DNA of 64,000 nt from Amoebophrya sp. A120 (taxonomy: Eukaryota; Protista; Dinoflagellata), in the NCBI GenBank assembly GCA_905178155.1, contig CAJINV010000002.1, positions 8,079,224 through 8,143,223 of the forward strand, given 5' to 3'. Position numbers and translations under genes: made by a program. The notes below the pieces were generated by a model. The model was not told the origin of the DNA. It was given only the letters and a program-made list of their open reading frames with translations, and made no database searches. This document shows positions 21,971-64,000 of this stretch, piece by piece (the first letter of the stretch is position 1; each line of letters begins with the position of its first letter).

Positions 21971-22452
21971 TAGAAACGAACCTCTGGGAAGATCAAATGG
22001 CATTTTGCATCAGTGTCCCTGTCCGTGCTTTGTTGAACGCATGAATAGGAGTTTCTTCGCTCCGCCGTGGGGATGAAGATTTGTTGATGTCGTTTGCTGT
22101 TCGTGTTCGAATTGGTCGTAACGGAAGATCTTTCGTGGCGCGAGGAAACACCCAAAGATCTGAAGATCACCCTTGGATGAAATGAGTTGAGTCGCATTTT
22201 CTTCCTCCCGTGGCCGCCGACAGTTTGAATACTGCTACCGTACTCAATCAGTGTACTGATTTCAATTTTCATCTTCATTACATGCACCTCAATGGTCTTT
22301 TTTTCCTAATTTTGTAGGACGGCCGTTTCTCCCCGCAAGTCGCACTAGTTTCATTTGTTTCTGTTTCCTGTTTCTGTAGTTGCCTCTACTCTTATCGAAA
22401 GTTCTGACTTTTGTTTCTTACTTTTTACCGTGAAATAAAGAATTAAAACTTA

Positions 22453-25400
22453 ATGATCACGACGTACTCGCTCTCGCACTGGGACCGAGTGTTTTCGACG
22501 TTTTACCCGTGCCGAAAAGTTGTGTCCGCGATGTTGGTGTGCTTGTTTCTTTCCCAGACGAGGGTATGTCGCGGTCTGGCGCTGATGCTATCAACGTTTT
22601 CGGTATTACTGTTCAGCCAACCAGTGCTTGTGCTTCTCGCACAGGCAGTACCAGTCGAAGAAGAACCGGCGAGCAGCAATCGCCATGCGACCTTCGAGTT
22701 GGAGTGCCACAACCGTCTTTCGTCCGAGTACCAGCTGTACCAATCCATCGTTGAGCAGCTCGATGACAAGGAGCACCACAGCAGCAGCGCGGTCATGAAG
22801 CCGCCCCCACCCACGAAAAGCGCAATTGAAGGCAAAACTCTGAAAACCTGCAATGCCTGGGGATTCCGCCCCTGTTGCGGCGAGCACTACCAGTGCGGGT
22901 TCGGTGCGGACTTCTGCGAATGCGCGGACTGTGTCGATTATCGGGTCATTCCCGCACCGGCCAAGACCGAGTTACAATTTTCAGCATCCTCTGCCTCGAC
23001 CAAAAAGCCTCTGAGACCGGGCGACAGCCTGCCTTTCCCCTACGACTCGGCGTTACTGACAAACACGAATGGGGGCGAAAGTCCGCTGCTGTCGGTGGAC
23101 GACGTGGTTCTTGGAAAAAATGCGCGGGACAGCTTCGAGGAAGAATTCTATAGTGGCAGCACCAAGGAAAGACCGAGATCCATCTCCTCGGCGCCTGATT
23201 CCGCAGGGCAGGGAACGGCAGGCATAATTCATGCCGAGGAAGAAAGCGCGCCGCCGGCCGGTGCTTCGCCAGAAAAACAGCACACTCCCAGTCCTGCGTT
23301 TTTGTCCGCCACCTACCAGCACCACTACCGCCACCAATCTCCCGCCCGGGCGACGATCATCGTTCCGTTTCGGGATCGGCAAGAGCACATGGAGATGATG
23401 AAGCACTACTGGAAGTGGTTCTCCGTTTTCGCGCAAAACCCGCGGGCGGTCTTCGAGTTCAACATCTATTTTGTGGAACAGTTCGACGACTTACCCTTCA
23501 ACCGGGGCTTTTTGTTCAACGCGGGCCTCGCGATTTCGGGGAGGATGAACGACATTTGCCTGAACTGCGAGGAGGTTCTGATGTCATCAACATCTCCCAT
23601 GCGAACAAGAACGAGCGAGATGAATGCAGATAATTTTGACGAAGACGAGCTGCTAGCCACGCGCGACTGCGTCACGGTTCATGACGTCGATTATTTACCA
23701 GATCTCCGCACCGACTACGGCAGTTGCGACGTGCCGACCGGTCTGTCTAACGAAATTGACCGGTACAACTGGGAACGGCCCTACGTGCTCTTCGCGGGCG
23801 CGATCGTCACCGCGCACCGATCGCACTGGCGCAAAGTGAACGGTTTTTCCAATCGCTACTTCGGGTGGTGCTGCGAGGACGACGATTTGAATTTGCGCTT
23901 CAAATTCGAATCCCTGTTGTTCGGGGACTGCAGCCCGGTGTGCGAGAAAAACCCAGAACTGGACTTGAAGGAAGGGGTCTACGGAATCGGATTGAAGCGA
24001 GCAGCCTACTCGCACGGCAGATTCAACACGGAGTTCATGCACAGTGTGAACCACACCCACCGTGTGAAAAACGCGCTGATTTACCACCGGAACATCGTGT
24101 TGGTGAACGAATACAAGTTGAAGGACAACAAACGTCATTTGTCCGACGGCCTGTCCACTTTGAAATTCCACGTGGTGGACTACGAGGTCGATGACAGCGC
24201 ATTGCGGGATAGTTCCTTAACCTTTCACCACGTAAAGGTGAAAAAATCCGCGAAGGGGTTTGATCTGTTGCAGGTGCCGCTGGTGTTGGTCAACGAAAAT
24301 ATCGAGCTGGATTTGAGAATGCTGCTGCAGCTGATTCAGTGGCGGGTCACGAAGGACTATGGGGCGGGAAGTACTGCTGGGAATACACGTGGCGGTGCTG
24401 CTGCTTCCTCTGGGAGTAGTGCAACTGTATCGGAGCATGAAAGTCTGAGCAAGAAGTGGGACAAGATGCTGGAAAAGGCGAAAATTGACCTGAAGAAGGT
24501 TCCTTTCAAGGTGCAGAGGTTGTACGTGTTAGTCAAAGTGTTTCGCGAGATGTTACTAGCCGGAGGTCCAGGAGCGGATAATGCTGGAATGACTTCTAAA
24601 AACGTAGTTGTACCGGCACAAAAGCGGAAGCACAAAAAGCCTTCGACTGCAGAGCTGTTTGCCGAGTTTCAGCAGAAGGCACAAGAGTCGGTCCACGAAC
24701 TTATGGAAAAGGAGAAGAATTGCGGACAAGAGGGTAGCAGTGGAGAAGGTGGCACATCTGACGAAACACGAGGAAGCGCTTTACACGATGTGCAGATCTC
24801 CATCATTGGCGTAAATCTGTGGGGGAACATCGGCGCTTTCATTGAGAACGACACAGAACTAGCAAAATTCTACCGCAGCACCCGGAGGCACCCAAGTGAT
24901 GAACAAGCACTGTATGTGTACGTCGCACCAATGGGGAAGAGTAGTGCGGCAAAGCCGCCTCCTGCGCCAGGTTCGAGTCCTGGTGTTGATGCCGAGAGTA
25001 AAGATAGCACAAGTTCGTCTAAAAATCTCGACACGCGCACGACCAACACCTTCGTCGAGCGAACTGACAACCGCATCTACGCTGGAGTTTACCCTGGTGT
25101 CGGTTCGAGTTGCAAAACAGCAGAAGAAAACTCACCACTACCGCTGAAGCAGCAGATCATCACCCATTTCCACCACCCAACGCAGGATCGCGTGTGGGAC
25201 TCGCCGACCCTGTACGAGACGTGCAGTTCCGATATCGGGGTGGACCTCGCGGGGATCGACAAAAACACGATGACGCACTTTCTCCAGGTATCCTAAGTAA
25301 AAACGTCCCCACCCCATAGTCAAGTTGGGAACTGTGCAACACAAATCCACAACTTTTGCGAGTCACGCATGACAAACTTTCCCCTGTATTGTAGTGCGGG

Positions 25401-27783
25401 GATAGCAAGGAAAGACGCATCGCAAAGCCAGCTCCTTATCCTGTTTACAGCATTACAAATGCGAAAACACGATAGAAAATGCCTCTCATGGGGATGCGCA
25501 TGACAAATGTTTCTGCTATTGCAAATCTGCATGACAACTAAGAATAATATATATTTCTGCTATTGCAAATCTGCAGAGCAGATAGTAAGAATATCAAAAC
25601 AAGATGAAAACTGCACGCATACACGCGCACTGCTTAACTGTGTGAAAGGTGTCGGCCCTGTTTGACCTGCTGCGGCAGGCAGGTGAATTCGTAGAACTGC
25701 TTCACATGTTAAGTAACGCACACCGGCCTCCTTGTTTTAGTGATGAATCGAAAAAGGGTTCAGGGGTGGCCCCCCTGTATGCATGCGCGGATTTATGTTT
25801 CCGACGGGTTTAGGGTTTTGATTTGTATGGACCAATGCGGCATGCACATCGAGTTTCCTGGCAGTGTCGACCTGCTGTACACGGCGCAACCCCCGCCGAA
25901 TCACGAGCGGAATGCGCATCTGAATCCGAATCTGAATCAACAGAGCGGGGCCCAATCAAAAAAAAAAAATCTGCATGACAACTATGGGGTGGGGACGTTT
26001 TTAAATACGATACCAGGGCTGCAGCGTCGGTTGGAATATCACGGACTTGACCCTGTGGGTATCAAATGCAAAAATGTCTGGGTCTGGAAGATTCTGAGAC
26101 TTGTCATGCAGTTTTTCCAAGCTCCGCCGAGTCTGGAATGCAGGGCCTAGCATCACAGGATCCGCAGCCCCTTGGTGATGCCTGTTCTGCATGAGAGATG
26201 CCCTCTCAGCATGGCCAAAAGTACGCACCTTTTGCAAGTCACGCAACACAGATTTTTGTATGATCCGCAACATGCATCACAAGTACCAACCTTCCAGACC
26301 CAGACATATTTGCAATGCATAGTGGGGCTTCGTAGACGATCCGAAGGTCAAAAAAATGCATAGGCCAGTCGCGCCGCCGACTTTGAGTACAACAACATCC
26401 ACGAGACCATCTCTAGGAACAGAAGAGCAGGCCCAAACTCCGAACCAGCAACCTCCTTCGCAAAAAATCGCGTCAAGCTCAGGTACCACAAACTGGAAGC
26501 GCATTTCCTTCGCGTCGAATTCGCTCTACTATACTCAGCTCGTCGAAGAGGGGTATTGGTCAAATCAGACGAAATACGGCCTAGTTTGGGACCAGGAGCC
26601 GTTTTCGTTGTACGTGCCCGAGGGGGACGACTTCTGTGTCGGCTTCCGAGATAGACTGCCCGGGCGCATTGCGAAGCTGAACAATTTAAGCGAGGAACAA
26701 ACCGCGGTGCCACCAGGGCTACCGAGTGTAGTACAAAACGCAGCGGCGCCTTCGGTTGAAAACAAGATGAACCTTGTGCAAGAGAAGAATAACATCATAA
26801 CCGAAAAGCCCGCCCTAGCAAAGGACTCCCGCTCGTTCGTCGGCTCGCGGCTGATGCGAGGGGCAAATTGCACTAATGAAAGCGATGGGTTCGAGCATAA
26901 ATTTTCCTTCGGGTTGCTGCGAATGACAGAGAATCCGGTGGTGACTTTGTGTTTGGGCAACAACGAACAGGCGAACGGAAAGCGCACGCACTGGATCATA
27001 ACGTTTGCCATGGTCGGTTCGTGCGTCGGAAAGCCGAGGGTGGTGTCGTGGCAGTGGAAGTTTCACGTGTTGGTATAGCGTTGTAGAAACAGGAGCTAGT
27101 TTATTTCCAGAGACCATCTTGTGGTCTTCCTGTGGCGTCCATGTAGTTGAAATCTAAATGAGTCTCGGTTGTGAGGGACGGCACAAATTTATGAGTATGT
27201 CAACATCAGAAACGGAAACATACAGGTCTTCAAGCACATCCCCTCTGGCTGGGACTCGACCGCGTTGGAGTTGCGATGCATAAAAGCCTACCCAGGCGGG
27301 GATGACATGGACAACCCGAGTCACTACGTCTCCACCGACTGCGACGGGGACATTCCAGAGCAAAATCCGAAGAATCACAAGATCCTGCAGAAGTTCTACA
27401 CACCGGCTGCCACGGTATTGAGTGCAGCAATCTCACCTTTGACGGAGAGCAAGAACAATCAGAATAGTGTAGTTGTGTCGCCGGCGAAGGAGCGCATAGA
27501 TGAACCGAGGCAGGACACGCACTGTTTCGAAGGCAGCCGCAATCTGGTTGTGCACGAAGCGAAATTCAGCTTTCGCCAAGTGAGGCCGAGCAGCGGAGTG
27601 GCGAGTTTGGTTCAGGGTGAGGGTATGGTCGGTAGTCCGTGTTACGGAAGTGAAGTGGCGATTCGGGCGGTGTCGAGGAATTTGTTGGACAGGAGATTTG
27701 TGTTGCTACTAGAATCAGAGGAAACTTGTCCAGATAGCTTCATGTGCCCATATCGAGTAGGGGCAAGCGTGAGGTATCCATGA
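22453..27783 (+). CDS. Glycosyltransferase family 7 (beta-1,4-galactosyltransferase-like) protein with a Cys-rich module and long C-terminal extension. Exons 22453-25288, 26018-26059, 26327-27072, 27226-27783
   Basis: IIVPFRDR, EQFDDLPFNRGFLFNAG, HDVD, VNGFSNRYFGWCCEDDD. After removing E8 and E9 the frame reads HFLQGCSVGWNITDLTLWGFVDDPKV. GT-AG intron at 27073-27225. Start codon uncertain. Confidence 0.85.
25289..26012. mobile_element. Introner E8 (family D) carrying a nested insertion; 724 bp, or 280 bp without insert and one TSD
   Basis: DR CCAGG at 25284-25288 and 26013-26017. TIR TAAAAACGTCCCCACCCCATAGT / ACTATGGGGTGGGGACGTTTTTA. Frame restored. Confidence 0.92.
25541..25966 (+). mobile_element. 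Poly(A)-tailed retroposon-like insert R1 (SINE or 5'-truncated LINE) nested in E8
   Basis: TSD AAATCTGCATGACAACTA at 25523-25540 and 25967-25984. 3' end GGGGCCCAATC followed by an A12 run. Shares conserved blocks with R2. Confidence 0.8.
26060..26321. mobile_element. Introner E9 (family A), 262 bp
   Basis: DR GTGGG at 26055-26059 and 26322-26326. Colinear with and closely similar to E1. Frame restored. Confidence 0.93.
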
Positions 27784-28069
27784 ACATGACGAGGAACAAG
27801 GATGGCAGAGATGAAAAGCCCACACCTGCGAAGAATTGCGCATGCTTCACGTGCACACAGAGACGCGCTGTGTTCTTTTTGCTAACGTCCAATCAGTGTG
27901 GTGATGTTCGAATCGCCGGCAAATTCGAGCAGCTGTGGAGGAGTGGAGGAGGTGTGGATAGTTTCTCCCGTGCTCTCTCTGTGAGCCACCATATTTGCTG
28001 AGTTCGGCAACACGGGGTAAAGTTTCCTCGCAATGTACCCCATGACGAAGAAGAAAATCCCCCGGCTAT

Positions 28070-30120
28070 GTATTGGAGAAGCCGGCGGCGAGGAAAATCC
28101 TGGGTGGCTGGGCCGCGCGATTCAAGGGGAAGAGGTTGAAGGGGAGCCTCGCGGTGGGAAGTCCCCAAAGGCGTGGCCGACAAGAGCCCGCGACAGGCGG
28201 CCGCCGGCCCGCAGCAGGCACCCAGCCGCCGGCCTGGGTGGCCTGCAGCTGGCCGGGGGCGCATGCGGGCGACGTTGTGCGTCGGGCCCGCAACGAGCCG
28301 GGGCCCGCCGCAAAGAATGACGGCGCTGCCGCTCTGCGCCCGGCCGCGAAGGTGGGAGCTTGTGCGTTTTTTGTGGGGCCCCGCCGGCTCCTTTGGGCGC
28401 GGGCGCGGGCGCCGGCGCGCGGCGCCCCGCTGCCTTTCGCGCGCCCGATGTGGGGGGCGCTCTCGTTCGGCCGGGCTGGCGCCGCTTGCACCCAGTCCCA
28501 TTGGCCGGATTTTTTCCAATGTGCCCCAAACTGCTCCGGTGCAGGGGCCGCCTCCGCTCTTGCGCCCATCCATGGTTGCCCGAGTCGGTAACTTGGCTGC
28601 GCAGGACAAGACGCCGGCCGGCCAGTTCACTCCGGCAGCGCACATGGCGGAAAAGAGCGGGCGCCCGCTCAAAGTGTTCGGGGCAGAAGAAAGCGCAGCC
28701 AGGAAGCACAGGGCGGGAAGCGCAGTGCGCGACCGGTGACGCAGAGAAATATCCGAGGCGATTCATTCCCAACACAGAGGGAGAAACCGACGCCGGCAAG
28801 AAGACGCTGCTGAGCTGCGGGACCGATTCAGAGCGACGGCGGGCGTGGCGCGCGGGTTGGTTTCCGGGGGCGGCGGCCGCGGAGCCACAGCAGCGGGCTG
28901 GCTCACGAACGCGCCCGCGTGTGCCGCGTTCGAGTGGCGAAAAAGGGCCGCGAGGGCCCGCGGAACGGTAGGCCGGCAGTGCAGCGGAAGGGCTTGACGC
29001 TGTTGCGGGAGTTGTACAAGGACGAAGCGCCCCGCGCCAGCATGCCGATGGCTTTGGCGAGCACCAGACGCGGGGCCGTCAGGGCGTGAGCAGCTACGTC
29101 GTAACTGTTGCAAGTCCCAAGAGGGGAGAGCATGTCTGTACTTTCCCAGAGCGCCGCTGGAACCGGGGAGAGCCGCGGGGCCGTCTTGCCAGGATGCTCG
29201 CCCGGGAGTGTGGGGCCCGGGTGCCGGCGGGCCGCGCTGGTTTGCTGGCCATGTACGGCCGCCCCGGTCACCGAGCGGGCTTGGGCTTATTTTCATTGCG
29301 CCTGCCGCCGGGTTGGGCGCCTGTACTCGTGCGCAGCTCTTGTCTTGGCCGAGCCAGCCCACCGCCAGCGGAAGCGGAGGGGGGGCGCGCTGCCACAAGC
29401 GAGGGAGAGCAATGCTTTGGACGTGTGTGATGCGGGCGGGGCGCGCAAGGTGCAGCGCGCACATCTTTCGGCGCTGTTAAGTAAACTCGCGCGCGGATAT
29501 CCATGATGGCCTGGCGCGCAAACTGGTTCCGGGTACGTTTGGCCCCGGCCACCGCAGGACGACCGAGCGAAGACGCAAACTGGAACACTTGCCAGATGGC
29601 TCGGCAGACCTACGCGGGTGCGGGGCGGGCGAAGCTCGTCGAGATCTCCGACGAGCTGGCGCAGCTGCAGGGATTCCGGGGCGGGATCGTCACGAAAAAC
29701 ACCGACGGCCATCGCTTGCCTCCGCGCGCTCGCGTCGCATGCACTGGCATGGCGCGACGCGGTTGATCGTCATGCCGCCAGCCCAGCCCCCGCCCTGGCG
29801 GGCGCCTTAGGGTAATCGCGCAGCGCCTGGCGCTGCGGCCGCCGCCGTAAAGAGGGGCACGCGGCTCGCGCAGGCGGTCGCGCTCGCTTGGCGCCGGCGC
29901 GGCAGCGCCCCCCCACTTTTGCCCTTGCGTTTTGTTGTAGCCAAGGCGGCCACCGGCCGCGCGATTTTTGCGTCGGATGCATGGGCTACAGCCTTGTTGC
30001 CCTGGCTCTGGTGCGCGCAGGGGCCCGGGCCCGTCGCCGGCAATGTCAGGCTTCCGCCGCGAGGGAGGCGTTGTGTGTTAATTCAGTAGACGAAACCGCG
30101 CAACACCCTGGCCGGCGGGG
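28070..30120 (+). pseudogene. Extremely GC-rich decayed coding or repeat-derived region, origin unknown (approximate limits)
   Basis: 52/60 G+C at 28381-28440. Short protein-like + strand fragments (TGDAEKYPRRFIPNTEGE, QRKGLTLLRELYKDE, KLVEISDELAQLQG) in changing frames. Confidence 0.45.
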
Positions 30121-38281: not shown

Positions 38282-38699
38282 GTGGGAGCGGTTTTTCGCG
38301 ACTTGGTGGGTGGTCGCGTTTTGTGTGTGTGCGTGAAGGAGGTCTGCTTCATTTTGGTGTATATGTGTAAACAAGAAAAAGTTGTTGCTTTTTTTGCTAA
38401 TAGTCCAATAACACTGAGTGAGAATTCTACTTTTGCTGTTGTTAGTGGGATGGACGGTAGAAAGTTGCTTCCAAAAGTGCTTTCAGATGCAGTGCTGCTG
38501 AACTTATATTTTCGAAGCCGTTTTTACCGCTGGCACGGGCCATGCGGAAATATGGCTGCGAGGAGGAAACAGAAGTGAACTATTAATTACTGTTTCGGCT
38601 TTATCGCTCTTAAATGTGTTCCGTTTACGACACCTGCCGCGAACGCAGCCAGCGGCTGTGTTAGCCTAGCTCCTCGCACCGTAGTGCTAGGTCAGCTGG

Positions 38700-40289
38700 G
38701 TTTCGTCTTCATACCACCTTGCACCAATACGCACAGAGGCAAAGAGGAGGCCTGGCGAAGGGGGGCGAAAGCTGCAGAGGGCTGCGCCGGAGGTCCTTGG
38801 GCAGGCGAAAAAAGCCGGGCGCTGCCCTTCGTTTTGCTGCCCTCGCCTATCTTGGCGATGCGCGTCGACGCTTCCCGTGGCCCGCCTCTGCCACGGTGGG
38901 CGGGCCGGGGTTTCCTTGACCGGCGACGATTGCGGCCGCAGGTATGCGCCCGGGCGAGATTGGGACGAAACCCTAGCAGAGAAGATTGGGACAGGCGCCG
39001 CGGCGAGATGAGGCGGCTGCCGCGCGGAGGGGTCGCGGGAGGTTGCGCCGATGAAAATGGTGGCCACATCGCCGACGTCTGCGGGACCGGATCGACCCCA
39101 CGAACCACAGGTATATCCGATGACATTGCTGGCCGCCGCAGGCGCTCTCCCCGCGGGTTTGCCTTGCTTGGCGCACTAACTTCCGCGGCCGAGGCATTTG
39201 CGAGCCCCGGCGGGCCGCCAAGCGCGCCGGCCGGCGCGGCCGGGCCGGGCCGCTAAGGGCCCGCCAAGGGCACTGCGGCGCTGCGCGCTTCTTTTGCGCT
39301 GGGGCTAGTACGTCCGCGCTTCGGCGCGCAGCGTCCTGAACAGGTGCCCGATTCTGGGACAGCTGCTGCCCCAGGCCCGCACGGCCTTCCGCGTGTTCGG
39401 GTCTGTGCGTCCAGCGGCAGAGTGCGGAGGCACGTAGCGAACGGAAAGGCGGCGCCCGGAGGCTTCGCGCGGGCGGCGCGGCCGCTCCTTGGCCGCGCCG
39501 GCCCCCGTTTAGGTGTCGCCGCCCTTCGAACACGTCGGCCACCTTCTGGGTCCCCGGGATGCGCCCCGGCGAGCCGGCGACCTGGTGGAACAAGAACCCC
39601 GGCGACCTGGTGGAGCAAGAGGATTGGGCCCCTACGGCCCTTGCATTTCCGGCGGGGCCCCCATCGGCCTGCTCGCCCCGCGCGCCCGCTCCGGCTGGGC
39701 CGCTAGTGCCGTCGGGCCGGCGCCCTCGCGGCCTTCCTGCTGGGCGGGCGGGCGCCGCCCGCCGCATTTCGTATATTCACCGCCGCGCCAGGAGTTGGCT
39801 TCTATCATTATAGACAAGCATTGGCTGTTGCGCTCCCTCCGGTTGCGCGTCCGGCGCGAATTGGGAGGCAAGCACACCCGGGCCGCGCCTTGAGCACAGG
39901 GGCGCGTTTGGTGCGCTGCCGTTGCCCCCCGGTGCGGGCACGTACTCTCGCGTCGTCGGCCTTGGATACTGATAAATTTTTTGGCATCATACGTGAGAAG
40001 GACAGAGCGGACACGCTTGGCCGCGCCATCCTTGGATGCTGCCACTTTCGTTGTGTTCATATCATTTGTGAGCCTGCGTGGGCCCCACGGCCAGACACGT
40101 ATTGAGTTGATGTTTTTGGAGGGCGAGAGCCTATTGGTACCCTGCGAGGACGGCTGTAGGTGGCAAGATGACCGGCGCGGACGGCAGTACATCGCGGCGC
40201 TTCCGAATGAATCGCGCATGAAATTCATGTTGTCTTGCTTGGTATACTTGCTTCAGAATTTTAGGTGTACCGAACCCGAGAAACAATGA
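38700..40289 (+). pseudogene. Second GC-rich decayed coding region (approximate limits)
   Basis: Very high G+C over about 38700-39960. Frameshifted protein-like fragments (GDLVEQE twice, ELASIIIDKHWLLRSL, LDTDKFFGIIRE, RIELMFLEGESLLVP...EPEKQ*). Confidence 0.45.
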
Positions 40290-40365
40290 CAATGCCACAA
40301 CGACGCATCTGCACGAAAAGATGGCAACGTAGTCTGTGAGTCTTGTTGACCACCTAGCGGGTGAC

Positions 40366-55248: not shown

Positions 55249-58200
55249 ATGAGAAAATTTCTGAAAAAAGTCATGCAGCCTCGCCCGGGACTCAAAAGTC
55301 CGGGGCTTCTGGCAGCTCTGGCTCTGGCGGTTGTGCTCGGAGGAGCCGCGACCCGTGCAGTTCGTGCAGCCAGTTCCTCTTCCACTGCGCTTCTCGCTGG
55401 TGCTACAGATCCTGCTGGAAATGGTCCTGGTCCTCTCCCAGCAGGATCTTCGGTCCCGGTGCTTGCCGACCCGACTGCACCACACCAGCAAGATGATCAG
55501 CATGAACCTGCGGCGGACCACCTCCACAGCAACGTTGCCGACACGTCTGACGCCGAGCTGCCTGCGGTGCGGTTTATCACGCAGTGCGTGACGGACGGGT
55601 CAGAGGGTCTTTCCACGCGTGCGAGGGAGAAAATGTACTTTTTGTTCGAGAAACGGCGCTGGAAAAATCCAGAGGCGCTGGACATTCTCACCTACCTAGC
55701 GAACCTGCAAGCGGGGCATGAAGCAGTTCTTTCCACGACCTCCTCTAGAAGTACTTCGCAAGACCGCTCGATGTTCGCGGCCCTGCGGGAGAAGTATCAC
55801 CGGGCGGCCAACTGGTTCGAGGCCGTTCGCGTTCTGCGCGACGAGTTTTTTTGGACTGAGGAACAGGTGTTCGACGCAACCATTCTACCGTCGACCGGTC
55901 AACAGTCGTCTTTCGCTGGGTCCTCGTCGGCCTCGACGACAACATGGCCCTTCAACGAGACGGAAACGCGGGAGCATCGGAAGCTCTTCGTGATTGATCA
56001 ATCGGCGCCTGGTGTCGAGGACGAGATCGACCCCGCGCAACGAGGACCGGGTGAACAAGGTCGTGAAGGGTCATTTTCATCATCGCAGCTGCATCATAAC
56101 GTCGAAAAGGAAAATCGGCAAAAGAACATCAATACCCAGACGAACCGTTTGCTGCAGTCGCTGCAGGAAATTCCTTTCTTCACGGAGAGAAATTCTTTCA
56201 GTTCGCTGAAGAGACACCCTGCGACGACGTACTATGCGGTGGAATTCCTGACGACGCGAAAAGGGGGCGAGATGGGCTTTGGGCCCATCGTGCCACCTCC
56301 AACCGCCCCGAACCCCCTGGTCTACGTGGAAGATATGGGGGCCAGGCTGGCGGTGGAATTGCGGTTTTACAAACTGTATGTGACGCACAACCGCGGATCG
56401 TTCCTTTTCATACCTGCGGGCGAAGACACCGCTGTGGACATGCGTCACGGTCTGTTCAGGACACTAGGTTTGAACCCGCTGATCCGCGCGCGTCGTTCTG
56501 CGGACGCTGATTGGGCAGTGCCGCGGCACGAGAACAGGGAGCTGTGCGAGCGTTGGTACGTGTCCAAAGAAGTGGAGCTGCCCGGTCCCGACTTTGCAGA
56601 CGCGGCCGTGCAGACGATGCAACTGCACGACCATACGCTGCTGCCGTGGAGTGTGAAACACACCGCCAAGTCCGCTCTGAACACCCTGCTCCCGCGCATT
56701 TTTAGCGCACAAGAGGACCACAGGCAACGACCGCCAACGAGAACGAGGCTACGCTTTCCGCCGGTGGGGAAGCAAATAGAGCAGAACCTGGTTTTGCCGT
56801 TCCAAGGAGCAGCAGGCCGTCTGGTGGGGTCTGTGATGAACGGGCTGAGAGCGACGGTGTGGCGGTCGCCTTCCAATATAAGAGGAGGAAAAGCGCGTAT
56901 TGCAATCGTAATGATTTCGTAATATTAAGTCATCTTATTCGACGAGGATCAAATAAATTGGTTGTGCGACTTTCTGTTGCCTCTACAAACAGTTCTTCTC
57001 AGTGAGTATGCTTGCTGTCTATGAAGCCGAATATAAGTTCAATTTTGCATCGACATTGTCGACTCACACTTAAGCCTCGGCTCTCATTTTCGAAACTTTG
57101 GAGAAATTTCTAGGCTTGCCTGTTACAACTGGCTCGAGTCTGGTGTACCAAAGCGCGACTGGGAAGATTGTGATGTCAGCTCTTTTCTTTCGATGCGCAG
57201 GAGTTGTACCGCCGGCGCCGACGGCGTGGGAGCAGGTGCAGGCTTGCCCGGGCATCGGTTGCAACATTCTGCGGTTCTATGGCAGCGGGGTGATTGCGGA
57301 GGAGGATCAGTTTTGGAGAAACATGATCGCAAAGGCTTTGCGACAGGAATTTCACATTAATCTCGGAGAGGGCGCTCGCGATGTTGAAGGTGATCCACCC
57401 CCCGGTCCTGAGTACCGTGTCGAGGCGACCACCCGGGCAGAACTGTTGCAACACGCGAGCAACAGCGTAGAACACCGCTTCCGTCGACTGGCGCGCGATT
57501 GGGACCTGCTGCGAAGGCTGTTCCCCTTGGAACAGCACACCCGCGGTTTCTTCCGCTTGCCCGGTCATGGGCCCGGCGCTGGCCGACGTCTGGTGGTCCC
57601 CGTGCCGGAAGCTGCTTACGACGGCATTTGCAGTCTCGCGTCCACTTGTAAGAAGAGGTTTTGTCCGAAAAGGCGAGCACCCGCCGTCTGCCGACGAATT
57701 GCAAAGCGCGTGCGCGACGACTACGTGCACAAAAACTGCGCTTCGGGCGTGGACTTGGGAAAGGACAAGTTTCTAGTGACCGAGTGGCGGAAGATTGAGA
57801 ATATCGCAAACATTTTGGACGATGTGTGGCGGAAAGCGCCGGGGGCTTTGAAAACGGAGCTGCGAAAAGCTCTAGGCATGGAGGCTCCTGCTCACGAAGC
57901 AGGGGAGCAGGAAGCAGCTCCAGGCGACCCGTTGGGCAAGTTTGGCTCGCAATTTTTTCCGAATCACGAGCAGATCACGCTGGCCCGTGCGCGGTCCATG
58001 GTCGGGAAAAATGGGCACCTTCCCTTTCTGCCGTTTATGGAGCACCCGGAGCGGAACCAGTGGGAGACGCAGGCACTGGAGATCGAGTTGACCAGCTTGG
58101 TCCTAAAAAAGACGATTACCATCCTAGTGACACCTATCGCAAGAGAAAACTGCTTCACTGGAAATTTGTGCGATGCAGGAAGATAGTAGGTATCACGCAA

Positions 58201-59477
58201 CTGCGACATCACAGAAACTTCCTATGGTTTTGCGAGAAATTGAAATGCAATTCCATTTCTAGCCGTGCCTTCCAGTAGAAAGCGCGCATACGAAATCTCT
58301 TATGTCATGCGAAAGTAACCTGTTGCATGCGAAAGAAACCTGTCATGCGAATTATCCTCCAATATCTCTACAGTGAAATGCTTTTTTCGCACGATGCAGC
58401 CTTTCGGGAGAAGGGTATCCTGAGTAAAAACATCCCCACACCAGAGTCAAGATGGGGATTTTGCAACACAAACCTAGAACTTTTGGGGGTCACGCATCAC
58501 AGGTTGCAGTCCGTAGTGTAGTGCAGGTTCGCAAGGCCAGCTGCATCAGAAATCCATCTGCTTATCCTGTTTACAGCATTACAAATTCCAAAACATGACT
58601 AAAAATGCCTCTCCTTGCGATGCGCATTACAAATGTTCCTGTCATTGCAAATCTGCATGACAACTCTGGCAGCGGGGCGCACTGACAAAAAGAGGCGGAA
58701 CGCAGCGAGGAGAGTGGCCTCGCTGTCGTTGCCGACCCAAGCAAATTTGATCCGTATCGTAGACGTAAGCACACTGCGCAAAAGATCCGGCAGCTTGTTT
58801 TTTGGCTGTCCCCCACTTATTAGATTGTCGTCAAAAATTAGTGATAGCGTTACTCCATTGCCGCCTTTGCGATATTTTTTTAGCGGACCCCGCACCAGAT
58901 CCCTCATGCCATTCCCGCGCAGTATTGAACACGTTTGACTCAATCACATAGACTCCCCTCGCTTCGGCACACCTCATCTGCCTAGTCGCCCCTAGGTAGG
59001 TGCAGGAATTTTCTGTGTGGGCTTTTTCTGATTAATTATTCCGACAGGGGCTGCGTCTTTTTTTTCTGCCTTGCCAGCAGAGTATGTGTGAAAGGGGGGG
59101 AATTGACGGAAGTGGAGCGAGACCTTGGTGCTGGAGAAGAGGACAAGAGTGGAAATGGTACAAACAAAAAACAAGCACCAATATACCCGCGCCATCTGCT
59201 TAACTGTGTGAATTATTGTGTCGGCCCGGTCCTGTTTAGTCGCAGGTCGGTGTCCGTGAGATCAGAATTCACATGTTAAGTAACGCACACCGGCTCCTAG
59301 CTTAAAAAAAATGATGAATTTATATGCGAATGGGGCCCAATCAAAAAAAAAAAAATCTGCATGACAACTCTGGTGTGGGGACGTTTTTACTCAGGATAAA
59401 GGGGTACGCGTAATCAGGCTGGCGAAAGTTTCCGCGGCCTTCCGTCTGGGCTCGGGGCGATGATGCAGTTCTTGTAA
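55249..59477 (+). CDS. Hypothetical secreted or membrane protein. Exons approx. 55249-56896, 57114-58134, 58402-58415, 59404-59477
   Basis: Hydrophobic LLAALALAVVLGGAA. The 587-aa and 362-aa ORFs join in phase via GT-AG intron 56897-57113. Removing E10 and E11 extends the frame to a stop at 59475-59477. The last two exons are less certain. Confidence 0.6.
58135..58396. mobile_element. Introner E10 (degenerate singleton), 262 bp
   Basis: Imperfect TIR TATCGCAAGAGAAAACTGCTTCACTG / CAGTGAAATGCTTTTTTCGCACGATG. Degenerate DR ACACC/CAGCC. Internal TGTCATGC motifs. Confidence 0.65.
58416..59398. mobile_element. Introner E11 (family D) carrying a nested insertion; 983 bp, or 279 bp without insert and one TSD
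   Basis: DR AAGGG at 58411-58415 and 59399-59403. Near-perfect TIR TATCCTGAGTAAAAACATCCCCACACCAGAGT / ACTCTGGTGTGGGGACGTTTTTACTCAGGATA. Confidence 0.92.
58670..59352 (+). mobile_element. Poly(A)-tailed retroposon-like insert R2 nested in E11
   Basis: TSD AAATCTGCATGACAACTCTGG at 58649-58669 and 59353-59373. 3' end GGGGCCCAATC followed by an A13 run. Shares conserved blocks with R1. Confidence 0.82.
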
Positions 59478-61114: not shown

Positions 61115-64000
61115 ATGGGTGTGCCAACCTTCTTTCGCTGGCTGTGTACCCGGTACCCCAAGACCATCCGGGACGCAGTGGAGAAGGAGCTGATCGAGAA
61201 GGATGGTCGTTTCGTGCCAATCGACATCAACGAGGAAAACCCGATATCCTGTGCAAAAGTATCGCACTCGTATTGCAATCATGCATTACAAATCTTTTTC
61301 TTAAACGTTAATCAGCATTACAAATTTTATTTCTCATGCTGAGGAAATTCGTAATGCATTTATACGAGTGCGATTGCGATACTTTTGCAATTCATACCCG
61401 AACGGCGGGTTCGACTGTCTCTACCTGGATATGAACGCAATCATTCACCCTTGTTCCCACCCCGAGGAGGGAAAACCGCCAAAAAACGAGGGGGAGATGT
61501 TTGAGTTGATCTTCCTGTACATCGACAGGTACAGATGAATTTACGATAATATTATGGTGAACATTTCATTAGTTGTGCTTGTGCGGTAGAACAAGCATGG
61601 CGTAATTATTTGGTGGGACGAGGAGGAACACGAACAGTTACATTACTAGAATTTTTGCAAAATTGCAAAACCTTGGACGTAAAAATAAACGCCTCGCTTG
61701 TAATATTTTGCTACGGTCGTCGTGTATGTCTTTGCACTAAATGACGTGGCAAAAGAGAAAAATCGCCAAACATTGATTCCGCAGGCCCGTGTGCGAAGGT
61801 ATTTTTTTCAAAAAAAAAAACAGGATCATCCGTATCGTCCGACCCAACAAGCTGCTCTACATGGCAGTCGACGGCTGCGCGCCGCGTGCCAAGATGAACC
61901 AGCAACGGGCGCGTCGATTTCGTGCGGCCCAGGAACGCGACGAACAGGCAGCGGAAAAGGAGAAGCTCAAAGCCGAGTGGGAGGCCGAAGGCAGGAAATT
62001 GCCACCGAAACAGGCACTGGCAGCCGCGTTCGACTCGAATGTTATCACACCAGGTACAACTACTAGCGCGAAAGATTAACATATGCGAATGATTTGTTCA
62101 TCTCTATACCTTTTTTCCGTCGTGGAATAGGAAGACGAGTTTTTTTTTTCCATCACGCAACCAAGAACATAGAAACAATTATGCCTTATCATCATCACGA
62201 CATCTTCACAGGAACGAAGTTTATGTGGGACCTGAACGAGGCTATTAAGTACTACATCCACGAGCGAACGAACTTCGATCCTTTGTGGCAAAAACTCCGG
62301 TTCCGCGTGATTCTGTCCGACTGCCAGATTCCCGGGGAGGGAGAGCACAAGTTGATGGACTTCATCCGAATTCAGCGGGCCCAGCCCGAGTACGACCCGA
62401 ACACGCGGCACTGCATCTACGGCGCGGACGCGGATCTGATCCACCTGGCGCTGGCCAGCCACGAAACGCACTTCCACATCATTCGTGAGGTGGTCTTGCC
62501 AAAAGAGGAGAAGAAGCAGGACCCCTGGGAGCAGTTCGAGGCCGATGAGGAGGAGGCGGAGGAGGTCGCGAAGGCCAAGCCCTTCCAGTTCATCAACATC
62601 GGCGTGCTGCGCCAGTATTTGTACTTCGAGTTCGAACCCCTCCGGGACAAGCTGCCCTTCCCGTACAACTTCGAGCGGTGCGTGGACGACTTCGTCTTCT
62701 TCTGTTTCTTCGTCGGGAACGATTTTTTACCGCACTTGCCCTCCTTGAACATCAGGGACGGCAGCATCGACATGATGATTCTGCTCTACCTGGAAACGCT
62801 CCCCAAACTCGGCGACTACCTGACCGACGCGGGGACCTTGAACCTGGAAACGACGGAGAAGTTTCTGGAGGACCTCGGGTCCGTCGAGGATCAGGTGTTC
62901 AAAAACCGGCTCGCGCGGGAGGCCAAGCAGAAGCAGGAGTTCGACGAGGCGCGGGACGGGGGCAAGGGGCTGGAGGAACTGGAGAAAAACGTGGAGGACG
63001 ACGAGGAGGAGGCGAAGATCGAGCGGATCAAGCGGGAAAAGCGCGACAAGGAACTGCAGGAGAAGAAGACCAAGGGCGAGTCCGCGAAGGGCATGGCGGA
63101 GGGGAAGAAGAAGAAAAAAATCGTCCGGAAAAAGAAGGGCATCGAGGTGAAAAAGGATGCGGACAAGAAGGAGGCCAGCGAAAAGAAGGACGAAAAAGCA
63201 TCGCCAAAGAATTCGCCGAAGCAGGCCGCGAAGAAGGTCGACGTGACGGCGGCAGCGGATCAGCTCGCCGCGCTCTTCGACAACGAGGCGGAATCCAGTA
63301 TCCTATGTAAAAACGTATCCACCCCATAGTCAAGATGGGGAATCGGCTAGACAAATCCACAAGCTTTGGCTGTTTCGCATGACAAATTTGGACGCGTAGT
63401 GTAGTTGTGTTTGAGCTAGTTCAGCAGCATTACAGATCTAGTTTCTCATGCTGATTGGAGCATGACAAATTTCAAAACACCATTAGAAAATGCTTCTCAT
63501 GGGGCTCCGCATGAGAAACATTTTAAGCATGCAGACTTGCGTGACAACTATGGTGTGGGGACGTTTTTACACAGGATATGCAGTTCCGAAGAAGAAGTCG
63601 AAGTCACGGATGACGAGGCCAGCGACGCCGAGAAGCCGAAAGAGAAACCCTCACCCATGGCGAAGGTACTAGAGAAGATTTTACCGTCTGCGTTTGCGTA
63701 TGAGGATACAGAGACAGACCCCAAATAACCCCATGCATATAGTTATAATCTTATCGATTGGCAGCTCTTTAGTGCTTGGTTCAAGGTGGAGATGTGTATT
63801 TACTTTTATCGGAACAGTGGTAGCAAGAGTCTTGAGTTTTGCATAAGGCAGAAACAGAAAGCGGTTAACGACCGAGGACATCGACTCTGGCGTCCTGTGA
63901 ACAAGCGCATGAAACAACTTTTTTCAAAAATCACTCACAGCCCGTCGTGAACTCGAAGAGACGCGAGGAGAAGATGGAAGAAGCGTTTTTGAAGCAGGTG
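61115..64000 (+). CDS. XRN2: 5'-3' exoribonuclease 2 (Rat1/XRN2), 3' partial. Exons 61115-61244, 61402-61528, 61824-62053, 62212-63298, 63584-63665, 63941->64000
   Basis: [34 protein letters not shown] (only after E12 removal), [68 protein letters not shown]2 versus XRN1 judged by eye. Confidence 0.9.
61245..61396. mobile_element. Introner E12 (family B, inverted relative to E2), 152 bp
   Basis: DR CCCGA at 61240-61244 and 61397-61401. Its reverse complement aligns with E2. Excision rebuilds the conserved XRN N-terminus. Confidence 0.95.
63299..63578. mobile_element. Introner E13 (family D, empty copy), 280 bp
   Basis: DR TCCAG (63294-63298) / TGCAG (63579-63583). Family D TIRs. Frame restored (EAESSSEEEV). 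No nested insert. Confidence 0.92.

Follow-up and report, generated by a model that had tools for sequence, protein, structure and literature searches.

A 64,000-nt window of the Amoebophrya sp. A120 genome (assembly GCA_905178155.1, contig CAJINV010000002.1, positions 8,079,224 to 8,143,223) was analysed. Introners of A120 start with TAT, seven variable bases and at least three A (PMC7789003), and are described as having TAT-N7-AAA termini, short direct repeats and exact excision (PMC7789003; PMC12130899). They make up 17% of the A120 assembly, in which neither a U1 snRNA nor a transposase was found (PMC7789003). An introner finder returned 12 elements in the window and none in three locally shuffled copies; it overlooks degenerate copies, among them the host of the locus L001 described below, whose bounds were set by hand. 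Family D is of the A120 introner type by its TAT-N7-AAA inverted repeats, with 32-bp terminal inverted repeats (TIRs) and a 5-nt host target site duplication (TSD). Two family-D elements, E8 and E11, each with 32-bp TIRs and 5-nt direct repeats, are filled with an insert, and a third, E13, is empty (Table 1). E8 lies inside a glycosyltransferase-7 ORF (22447-27078, + strand), and the XRN2 exon at 62160-63287, upstream of E13, matches an Amoebophrya sp. A120 protein at 99% identity. For the E11 gene, a near-length protein search gave no match and a search of a representative protein library returned the A120 protein itself as the sole match. Additionally, two GC-rich (~70%) intergenic blocks at 27900-30100 and 38600-40300 are possibly mobile elements; the one ORF tested per block had no Pfam match.

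Table 1 Features of the filled and empty introners. Positions are those of the window; the lower rows describe copies from metagenome contigs.
Feature	Position	Strand	Remarks
E8, family-D introner filled with second subfamily	25289..26012	+	280 bp when empty; host TSD CCAGG
E8 retroposon TSD, 18 nt	left 25523..25540, right 25967-25984	+	
E8 5' junction rearrangement	25541..25575	+	13 nt of unplaced origin, then 22-nt copy of host 25510-25531
E8 retroposon body	25576..25966	+	174 nt shared with L001/L003, private 188 nt, common tail, A12
E11 host gene	55249..59477	+	A120 protein CAD7935035.1, 883 aa, no known family; E11 is the last intron
Degenerate introner beside E11	58135..58396	+	short exon between; 267 nt removed in annotated protein
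E11, family-D TIR introner filled with retroposon	58416..59398	+	279 bp when empty
E11 host TSD, 5 nt	58411-58415 and 59399-59403		
E11 TIRs, 32 bp	58416-58447 and 59367-59398	+	
E11 retroposon TSD, left copy, 21 nt	58649..58669	+	starts with AAA-N3-GCA-N3-CAA
E11 insert, 683 nt, non-coding	58670..59352	+	5' ~460 nt unrelated to other subfamily
Conserved 3' module	59197..59342	+	predicted RNA fold; tail end follows
Module long hairpin	59197-59212 with 59268-59282	+	14-pair stem, inner branched hairpin; predicted
Module terminal helix	59292-59297 with 59332-59337	+	6 pairs, closes just before tail; predicted
E11 A13 tail	59343..59355	+	last 3 A ambiguous with target
E11 retroposon TSD, right copy, 21 nt	59353..59373	+	overlaps inner 7 nt of right TIR
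E13, empty family-D introner in XRN2	63299..63578	+	280 bp; without target motif
L001			host 265-bp introner, second family; TSD 19 nt; insert 787 nt
L002			host family D, same nucleotide, another locus; TSD 9 nt; insert 209 nt
L003			host 290-bp introner, third family; TSD 18 nt; insert 838 nt

The first-pass annotation of this DNA had proposed that E8 and E11 each contain a poly(A) retroposon inserted at the same nucleotide of family D. The coordinates, the insert lengths of 426 and 683 nt and the shared 3' junction were confirmed base for base, as were the perfect TSDs (25523-25540/25967-25984 and 58649-58669/59353-59373) and the tails GGGGCCCAATC(A)12 and GGGGCCCAATC(A)13 of E8 and E11, respectively. 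The 3' junction lies 11-14 nt inside the right TIR, so that this 32-bp repeat is left intact. The two inserts do differ internally, sharing only a core of ~115 nt (75.6% identity) and a 20-nt tail. Emptied E8 and E11 (280 and 279 bp) align end to end with each other at ~80% identity and with E13 at 72-73%. Their reported match to E13 holds for its length of 280 bp, but E13 reads AGACTTGCGTGACAA at the target position and lacks the target motif defined below.

Excision of the filled introners was examined through the encoded proteins. Gene models of A120 were built from transcript and protein alignments, its splice sites being non-canonical. Among seven lengths tried, only excision of 988 nt, corresponding to the E11 element with its passenger and one host TSD, reproduced the C-terminus of CAD7935035.1; for E13, only a 285-nt excision matched the XRN2 protein. 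E11 with its passenger is thus excised in the annotated gene model, and transcripts are the likely source of that model, since the models are alignment-built and the gene's sole library homologue is itself. E8 contains stops in all three frames, and only one of five lengths tried, 729 nt (the E8 element plus one 5-nt host TSD), keeps the frame open, giving 1211 aa versus 957-973 aa. On this reading frame E8 would also be spliced out; the database protein lends no support because it ends, at 818 aa, before E8. Splicing of the filled introns, as originally suggested, was therefore supported for E11 by the A120 gene model, but the suggested intron lengths of 724 and 983 nt have to be replaced by exact excisions of 729 and 988 nt. 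The 1211-aa glycosyltransferase-7 frame runs across two introners, and the public model of this gene may be truncated. Because every copy found sits in an intron-forming transposon, the element is likely to be carried within genes and removed by splicing along with its host.

Within the window, a scan with the tail pattern (≤2 mismatches) gave two matches against 0.15 expected, a number reached by 1 of 100 shuffles, and no copies beyond E8 and E11. Metagenome contigs were scanned blind with a 20-nt core piece, the target sequence not being used. Three loci were obtained, all from one public record set (L001, L002 and L003); their introners reach 96% identity with window introners. All three inserts lie inside introners and have the common tail and a TSD. 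Pattern scans of viral contigs and prokaryotic genome contigs gave no matches. BLAST (E<1e-3) aligned the L001 and L003 hosts neither with family D nor with one another, and the inserts in these two hosts are 98.3% and 98.9% identical, respectively, to that of E8 over 174 nt. Inserts 98-99% alike in unrelated hosts are therefore separate recent insertions, and a single ancestral event is excluded. E11 and L002 belong to the other subfamily; over the last 245 nt they are 72% identical to E8, L001 and L003, and farther 5' they are unrelated to them. The hosts of E11 and L002 are 96% identical and their inserts 98%; these two copies may go back to a single event, the filled introner having transposed afterwards, and the five copies are therefore counted as at least, and perhaps exactly, four insertion events.

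All five copies share one 3' end followed by poly(A) tails of 12, 13, 13, 15 and 18 nt, while their 5' ends vary; across E8, E11 and L001-L003 the TSDs measure 18, 21, 19, 9 and 18 nt and the inserts 426, 683, 787, 209 and 838 nt. The claim of independent insertions with poly(A) tail and TSD into introners, made for two copies, was true of all five seen: none lay at a random site, they did not form one clade, and each had a TSD. The short copies E8 (25575-25576) and L002, although of different subfamilies, begin at a homologous point within 1 nt, directly 3' of a conserved GTGCTGGAG..GAGGACA word, a possible sign of a defined 5' end of the RNA, or of a short form of the element, rather than of random truncation. 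The 5' end of L003, the longest insert, consists of three tandem 18-nt T-rich units, possibly UTR monomers or a product of slippage. The private 188-nt piece of E8 (25749-25936) sits in the loop of the terminal helix, is flanked by TGAATC repeats and contains a telomere-like GGGTTTAGGGTTT; it had no match in the window, in the three metagenome loci or in Rfam.

The 5' junctions were compared in all five copies. The element is joined directly to the TSD in E11 and L003, and through a CA common to target and element in L002; the elements carry 44-68 CA dinucleotides, each a possible microhomology site. In E8, 13 extra bases and then a 22-nt stretch duplicated from the target in its own host (25554-25575 = 25510-25531) stand between TSD and element, so that the first 35 nt of the insert are not element sequence. 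In L001 the TSD is followed by a 16-nt copy of its own target and then the element with a 4-nt overlap. The inner junction of E8 and the junction of L002 coincide in both target and element position. Microhomologies and non-templated bases also occur at junctions of R1 and R2 in 28S rDNA, and 'insertion site rearrangements' of Drosophila R1 comprise the TSD, extra bases and a 16-27-nt copy of the upstream target (PMC2718515). The Amoebophrya copies resemble R1 and R2 in their fixed 3' junction and R1 in the target-copy junctions of E8 and L001. Such junctions, with microhomology, extra bases or target copies in E8, L001 and L002, are the best evidence in the sequence for what would be target-primed reverse transcription. 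The R1 target copy has been ascribed to co-transcribed flank (PMC2718515), whereas the copied pieces in Amoebophrya match the recipient's own variant; we infer from this match that the cDNA copied local target DNA; alternatively, flank from a matching host may have been part of a donor RNA.

No reverse transcriptase (RT) or endonuclease was found in the five inserts, whose longest stop-free frame is 121 aa; none thus carries the ORF with RT and an APE or RLE endonuclease that marks an autonomous LINE, and the L001 and L003 inserts differ by frameshifting indels. The copies may belong to a non-autonomous family, or they may be LINEs that are truncated and have a long 3' UTR. The shared 3' module is predicted to fold into a long hairpin and a terminal helix; between the two sequence types available, 1 of 30 pairs was compensatory and 4 of 30 were changed on one side. 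Single-sequence folding z-scores were -2.5 for the E11 core and weak in 3 of 4 plus-strand folds. On this predicted fold, the module may be an RT-binding signal. No Rfam family was found for it, all matches being at chance level and far below gathering scores, so readings of the insert as a ribozyme, snoRNA, snRNA or U3 are unsupported. By eye, the fold presumably does not fit hammerhead, HDV, pistol or group II domain V motifs either. A Pol III SINE with a tRNA, 7SL or 5S head was rejected because the inserts have no tRNA head and no B box, and T5-8 runs are present in the three long copies; this applies to the ends present, as true 5' ends may be missing. Nor was there an Rfam snRNA match indicating a SINEU-type U1/U2 head, at E≤10 for the window inserts and E≤1 for the loci, thresholds that a divergent snRNA might escape.

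A possible lead to an autonomous partner comes from published A120 families. Three of 58 have LINE peptide matches, with spans of 7-8 kb; fam16 and fam6 are classed as TIR and fam2 is of unknown class (PMC12130899). Such spans are what nested full-length LINEs would give, a weak lead, as nesting is not LINE-specific: other A120 families show LTR or Maverick matches (PMC12130899). The same table lists fam99 as an A120 'non-LTR' introner family of ~0.8 kb with an 11-nt TSD, and some calls of this kind may conceivably be filled TIR introners.

The target was originally described as one site of family D. It is rather a degenerate motif that no fewer than three unrelated introner families have in common. 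This motif, AAA-N3-GCA-N3-CAA, was derived post hoc from the three distinct target sequences, which agree in 6 of 12 positions after the A-run (rough P 4e-5). In all copies the A-tail faces the near end of the host, and the distance from tail end to host end is 43, 56 or 72 nt. Of 18 motif matches, 13 fell in introners, which constitute 7.5% of the DNA scanned (78 kb, inserts removed); without the five insertion sites, the count was 8 of 13 (P 9e-7). The motif lies 46-82 nt from one end in 8 of the 12 window introners, two of which are filled, and its GCA-N3-CAA part occurs repeatedly within introners. Neither of the two empty family-D copies observed, E13 and one in L001, has the motif. The probability that all three blind copies fall in introners by chance is 4e-4 to 5e-3 on whole-DNA shares of 7.5% and 17%, and rises to 0.03-0.06 if introners are assumed to form 30-40% of tolerated non-coding DNA. 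Overall, the sequences point to a motif near the ends of several introner families, not family D, as the target.

Several other origins of this pattern were considered. A weakly specific LINE or SINE might nick any T-run, with selection keeping the spliced-out copies, so that homing is only apparent. The small number of copies, the expected purging of exon insertions and the AAA that begins every target, as it does with relaxed APE endonucleases, all agree with this. Selection would nevertheless leave unexplained why none of the five copies is in intergenic DNA or an ordinary intron, why the same register on GCA and CAA recurs in three unrelated hosts, and why the position is constant, 43-72 nt from the host end with the tail toward the near TIR; we therefore regard apparent homing as unlikely. 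Tethering to a protein on the subterminal introner motif, such as a transposase or splicing factor, could replace the endonuclease's own preference. The presence of the motif near an end of 8 of 12 window introners and the recurrence of GCA-N3-CAA, as of a protein-binding site, would suit such a protein; it is hypothetical, however, and since all five copies have the nick in the same register on the motif, direct recognition is simplest, which makes tethering rather improbable.

Capture of a polyadenylated host non-coding RNA during repair of breaks at introner ends is given little credence. The insert has no ORF, a folded core and a RUGAUGA box-C-like word, and polyadenylated snRNAs were raised as a possibility for this genome, in which U1 is missing (PMC7789003). 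Against this, no Rfam match came near its gathering score and no tRNA was found, the 5' bodies of the two subfamilies are unrelated, and long TSDs together with a fixed 3' junction are what a staggered cut by an endonuclease would leave. Spread of one ancestral insertion by copying of the filled introner is scarcely credible, and as a general account it is refuted by near-identical inserts that occupy hosts of three unrelated families, every one with a TSD of its own. It draws on the near-identity of E11 and L002 at different loci, where L002 may be an E11-type copy that moved and lost internal sequence, and on the similar divergence of hosts (~20%) and cores (~25%) between E8 and E11; the coincidence of the L002 and E8 junction positions speaks against it even there.

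Taken together, the inserts are probably non-coding poly(A) retroposon copies that were integrated by target-primed reverse transcription, directed by a motif in three introner families and, in E11, removed with the intron. Integration was likely carried out by a putative LINE protein. Opposite AAA, its endonuclease would nick the bottom strand at the step from T-run to purine, where the poly(A) tail could pair with the freed T's and prime synthesis, while the protein would be bound to the folded 3' module, the sole part common to both subfamilies. A top-strand cut 18-21 nt downstream would generate the TSD. In E11 and L003 the cDNA end would be joined without any intermediate; in L002 the joining would involve trimming and 1-4 nt of microhomology, and in E8 and L001 16-22 nt of target DNA would be copied first. 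Since the nick would lie inside the TIR, the intron-defining ends would survive, and the passenger is presumably harmless to the host gene. The TSD length and the proposed T/purine nick are of the APE type, as in L1/Tx1-like LINEs, and, as with Tx1L and Tx1-Mar, the site occupied belongs to a non-autonomous DNA transposon in 5 of 5 copies, a small sample, all in TIR introners. By analogy, we lean toward an APE-type LINE as the partner.

Retroposons that target non-autonomous DNA transposons are already known (PMC4494074). Xenopus Tx1L inserts into Tx1D, a non-autonomous piggyBac (as cited in PMC4494074). The first-pass annotation named this pair as a precedent, and it is one of the kind, but SINEU-3 and the Tx1-Mar LINEs, which target Mariner-N4_AMi in crocodilians, are closer: 313 of 347 SINEU-3 copies are flanked by Mariner-N4 (Kojima 2015, PMC4494074). 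In the same account, Tx1-9_AMi uses three Harbingers with ends ~90% identical, and Tx1 is an animal clade (PMC4494074). Like SINEU-3, the Amoebophrya element is non-coding, has inserted independently at a fixed site of non-autonomous TIR transposons and is flanked by long TSDs; transcription from the flank was proposed for SINEU-3/Mariner-N4 as well (PMC4494074). By analogy, the element may work like SINEU-3. Differences are that the hosts of SINEU-3 and Tx1-Mar are one family or close relatives, whereas those in Amoebophrya are three unalignable families with one short motif; that Mariner-N4 is not described as an intron in the relevant passages of PMC4494074, whereas the Amoebophrya hosts are introns of coding genes; and that the element has no detected snRNA head, unlike SINEU, and resides in an alveolate. 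With Tx1L it shares a DNA transposon as target of a site-specific retroelement, but Tx1L is autonomous with a single host family, while no autonomous copy is among the five seen here. R1 and R2 target rRNA genes, which their insertion inactivates; the Amoebophrya target is an introner motif.

PMC7789003 and PMC12130899 describe the introner hosts and, in the passages concerned, mention no retroposon that lies within introners or targets them. Nor did the open-access literature searched, including the relevant passages of PMC11282704 and bioRxiv 2024.09.05.611473, yield an account of an introner-targeting retroelement. The spliced-out introner host, the use of several unalignable host families through one short motif and the alveolate setting are new. 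They add a class of safe targets for site-specific retroelements, namely spliced-out DNA transposons inside exons, and extend transposon-targeting retroposons from animals to an alveolate. The motif common to unrelated A120 introner families also offers a handle on introner movement and splicing.

A broader reading is put forward tentatively: a promoterless retroelement may parasitise the whole introner system, reading a shared subterminal motif, being transcribed only in host pre-mRNA, using the excised intron as template and being carried onward in filled introners. If this were true, the element would be a hyperparasite whose landing sites in coding genes number in the tens of thousands, renew themselves and are spliced out, and it would mark a motif bound by a putative introner mobilising or splicing factor. 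The inserts are in host-gene sense in E8 and E11 and likely also in L001-L003, and in unfilled motif-bearing window introners the motif is on the minus strand in 5 of 6; a link to transcription is possible, though the numbers are small. The element's RT was also considered as the mobiliser of the introners themselves and was rejected because the TIRs of introners and their constant 5-nt TSDs are as expected for a transposase or integrase. The TIR pairs co-vary within one introner copy (32 of 32 positions matched in L002, 31 of 32 in E11) while the variants differ between copies, which suggests selection for pairing or homogenisation during copying.
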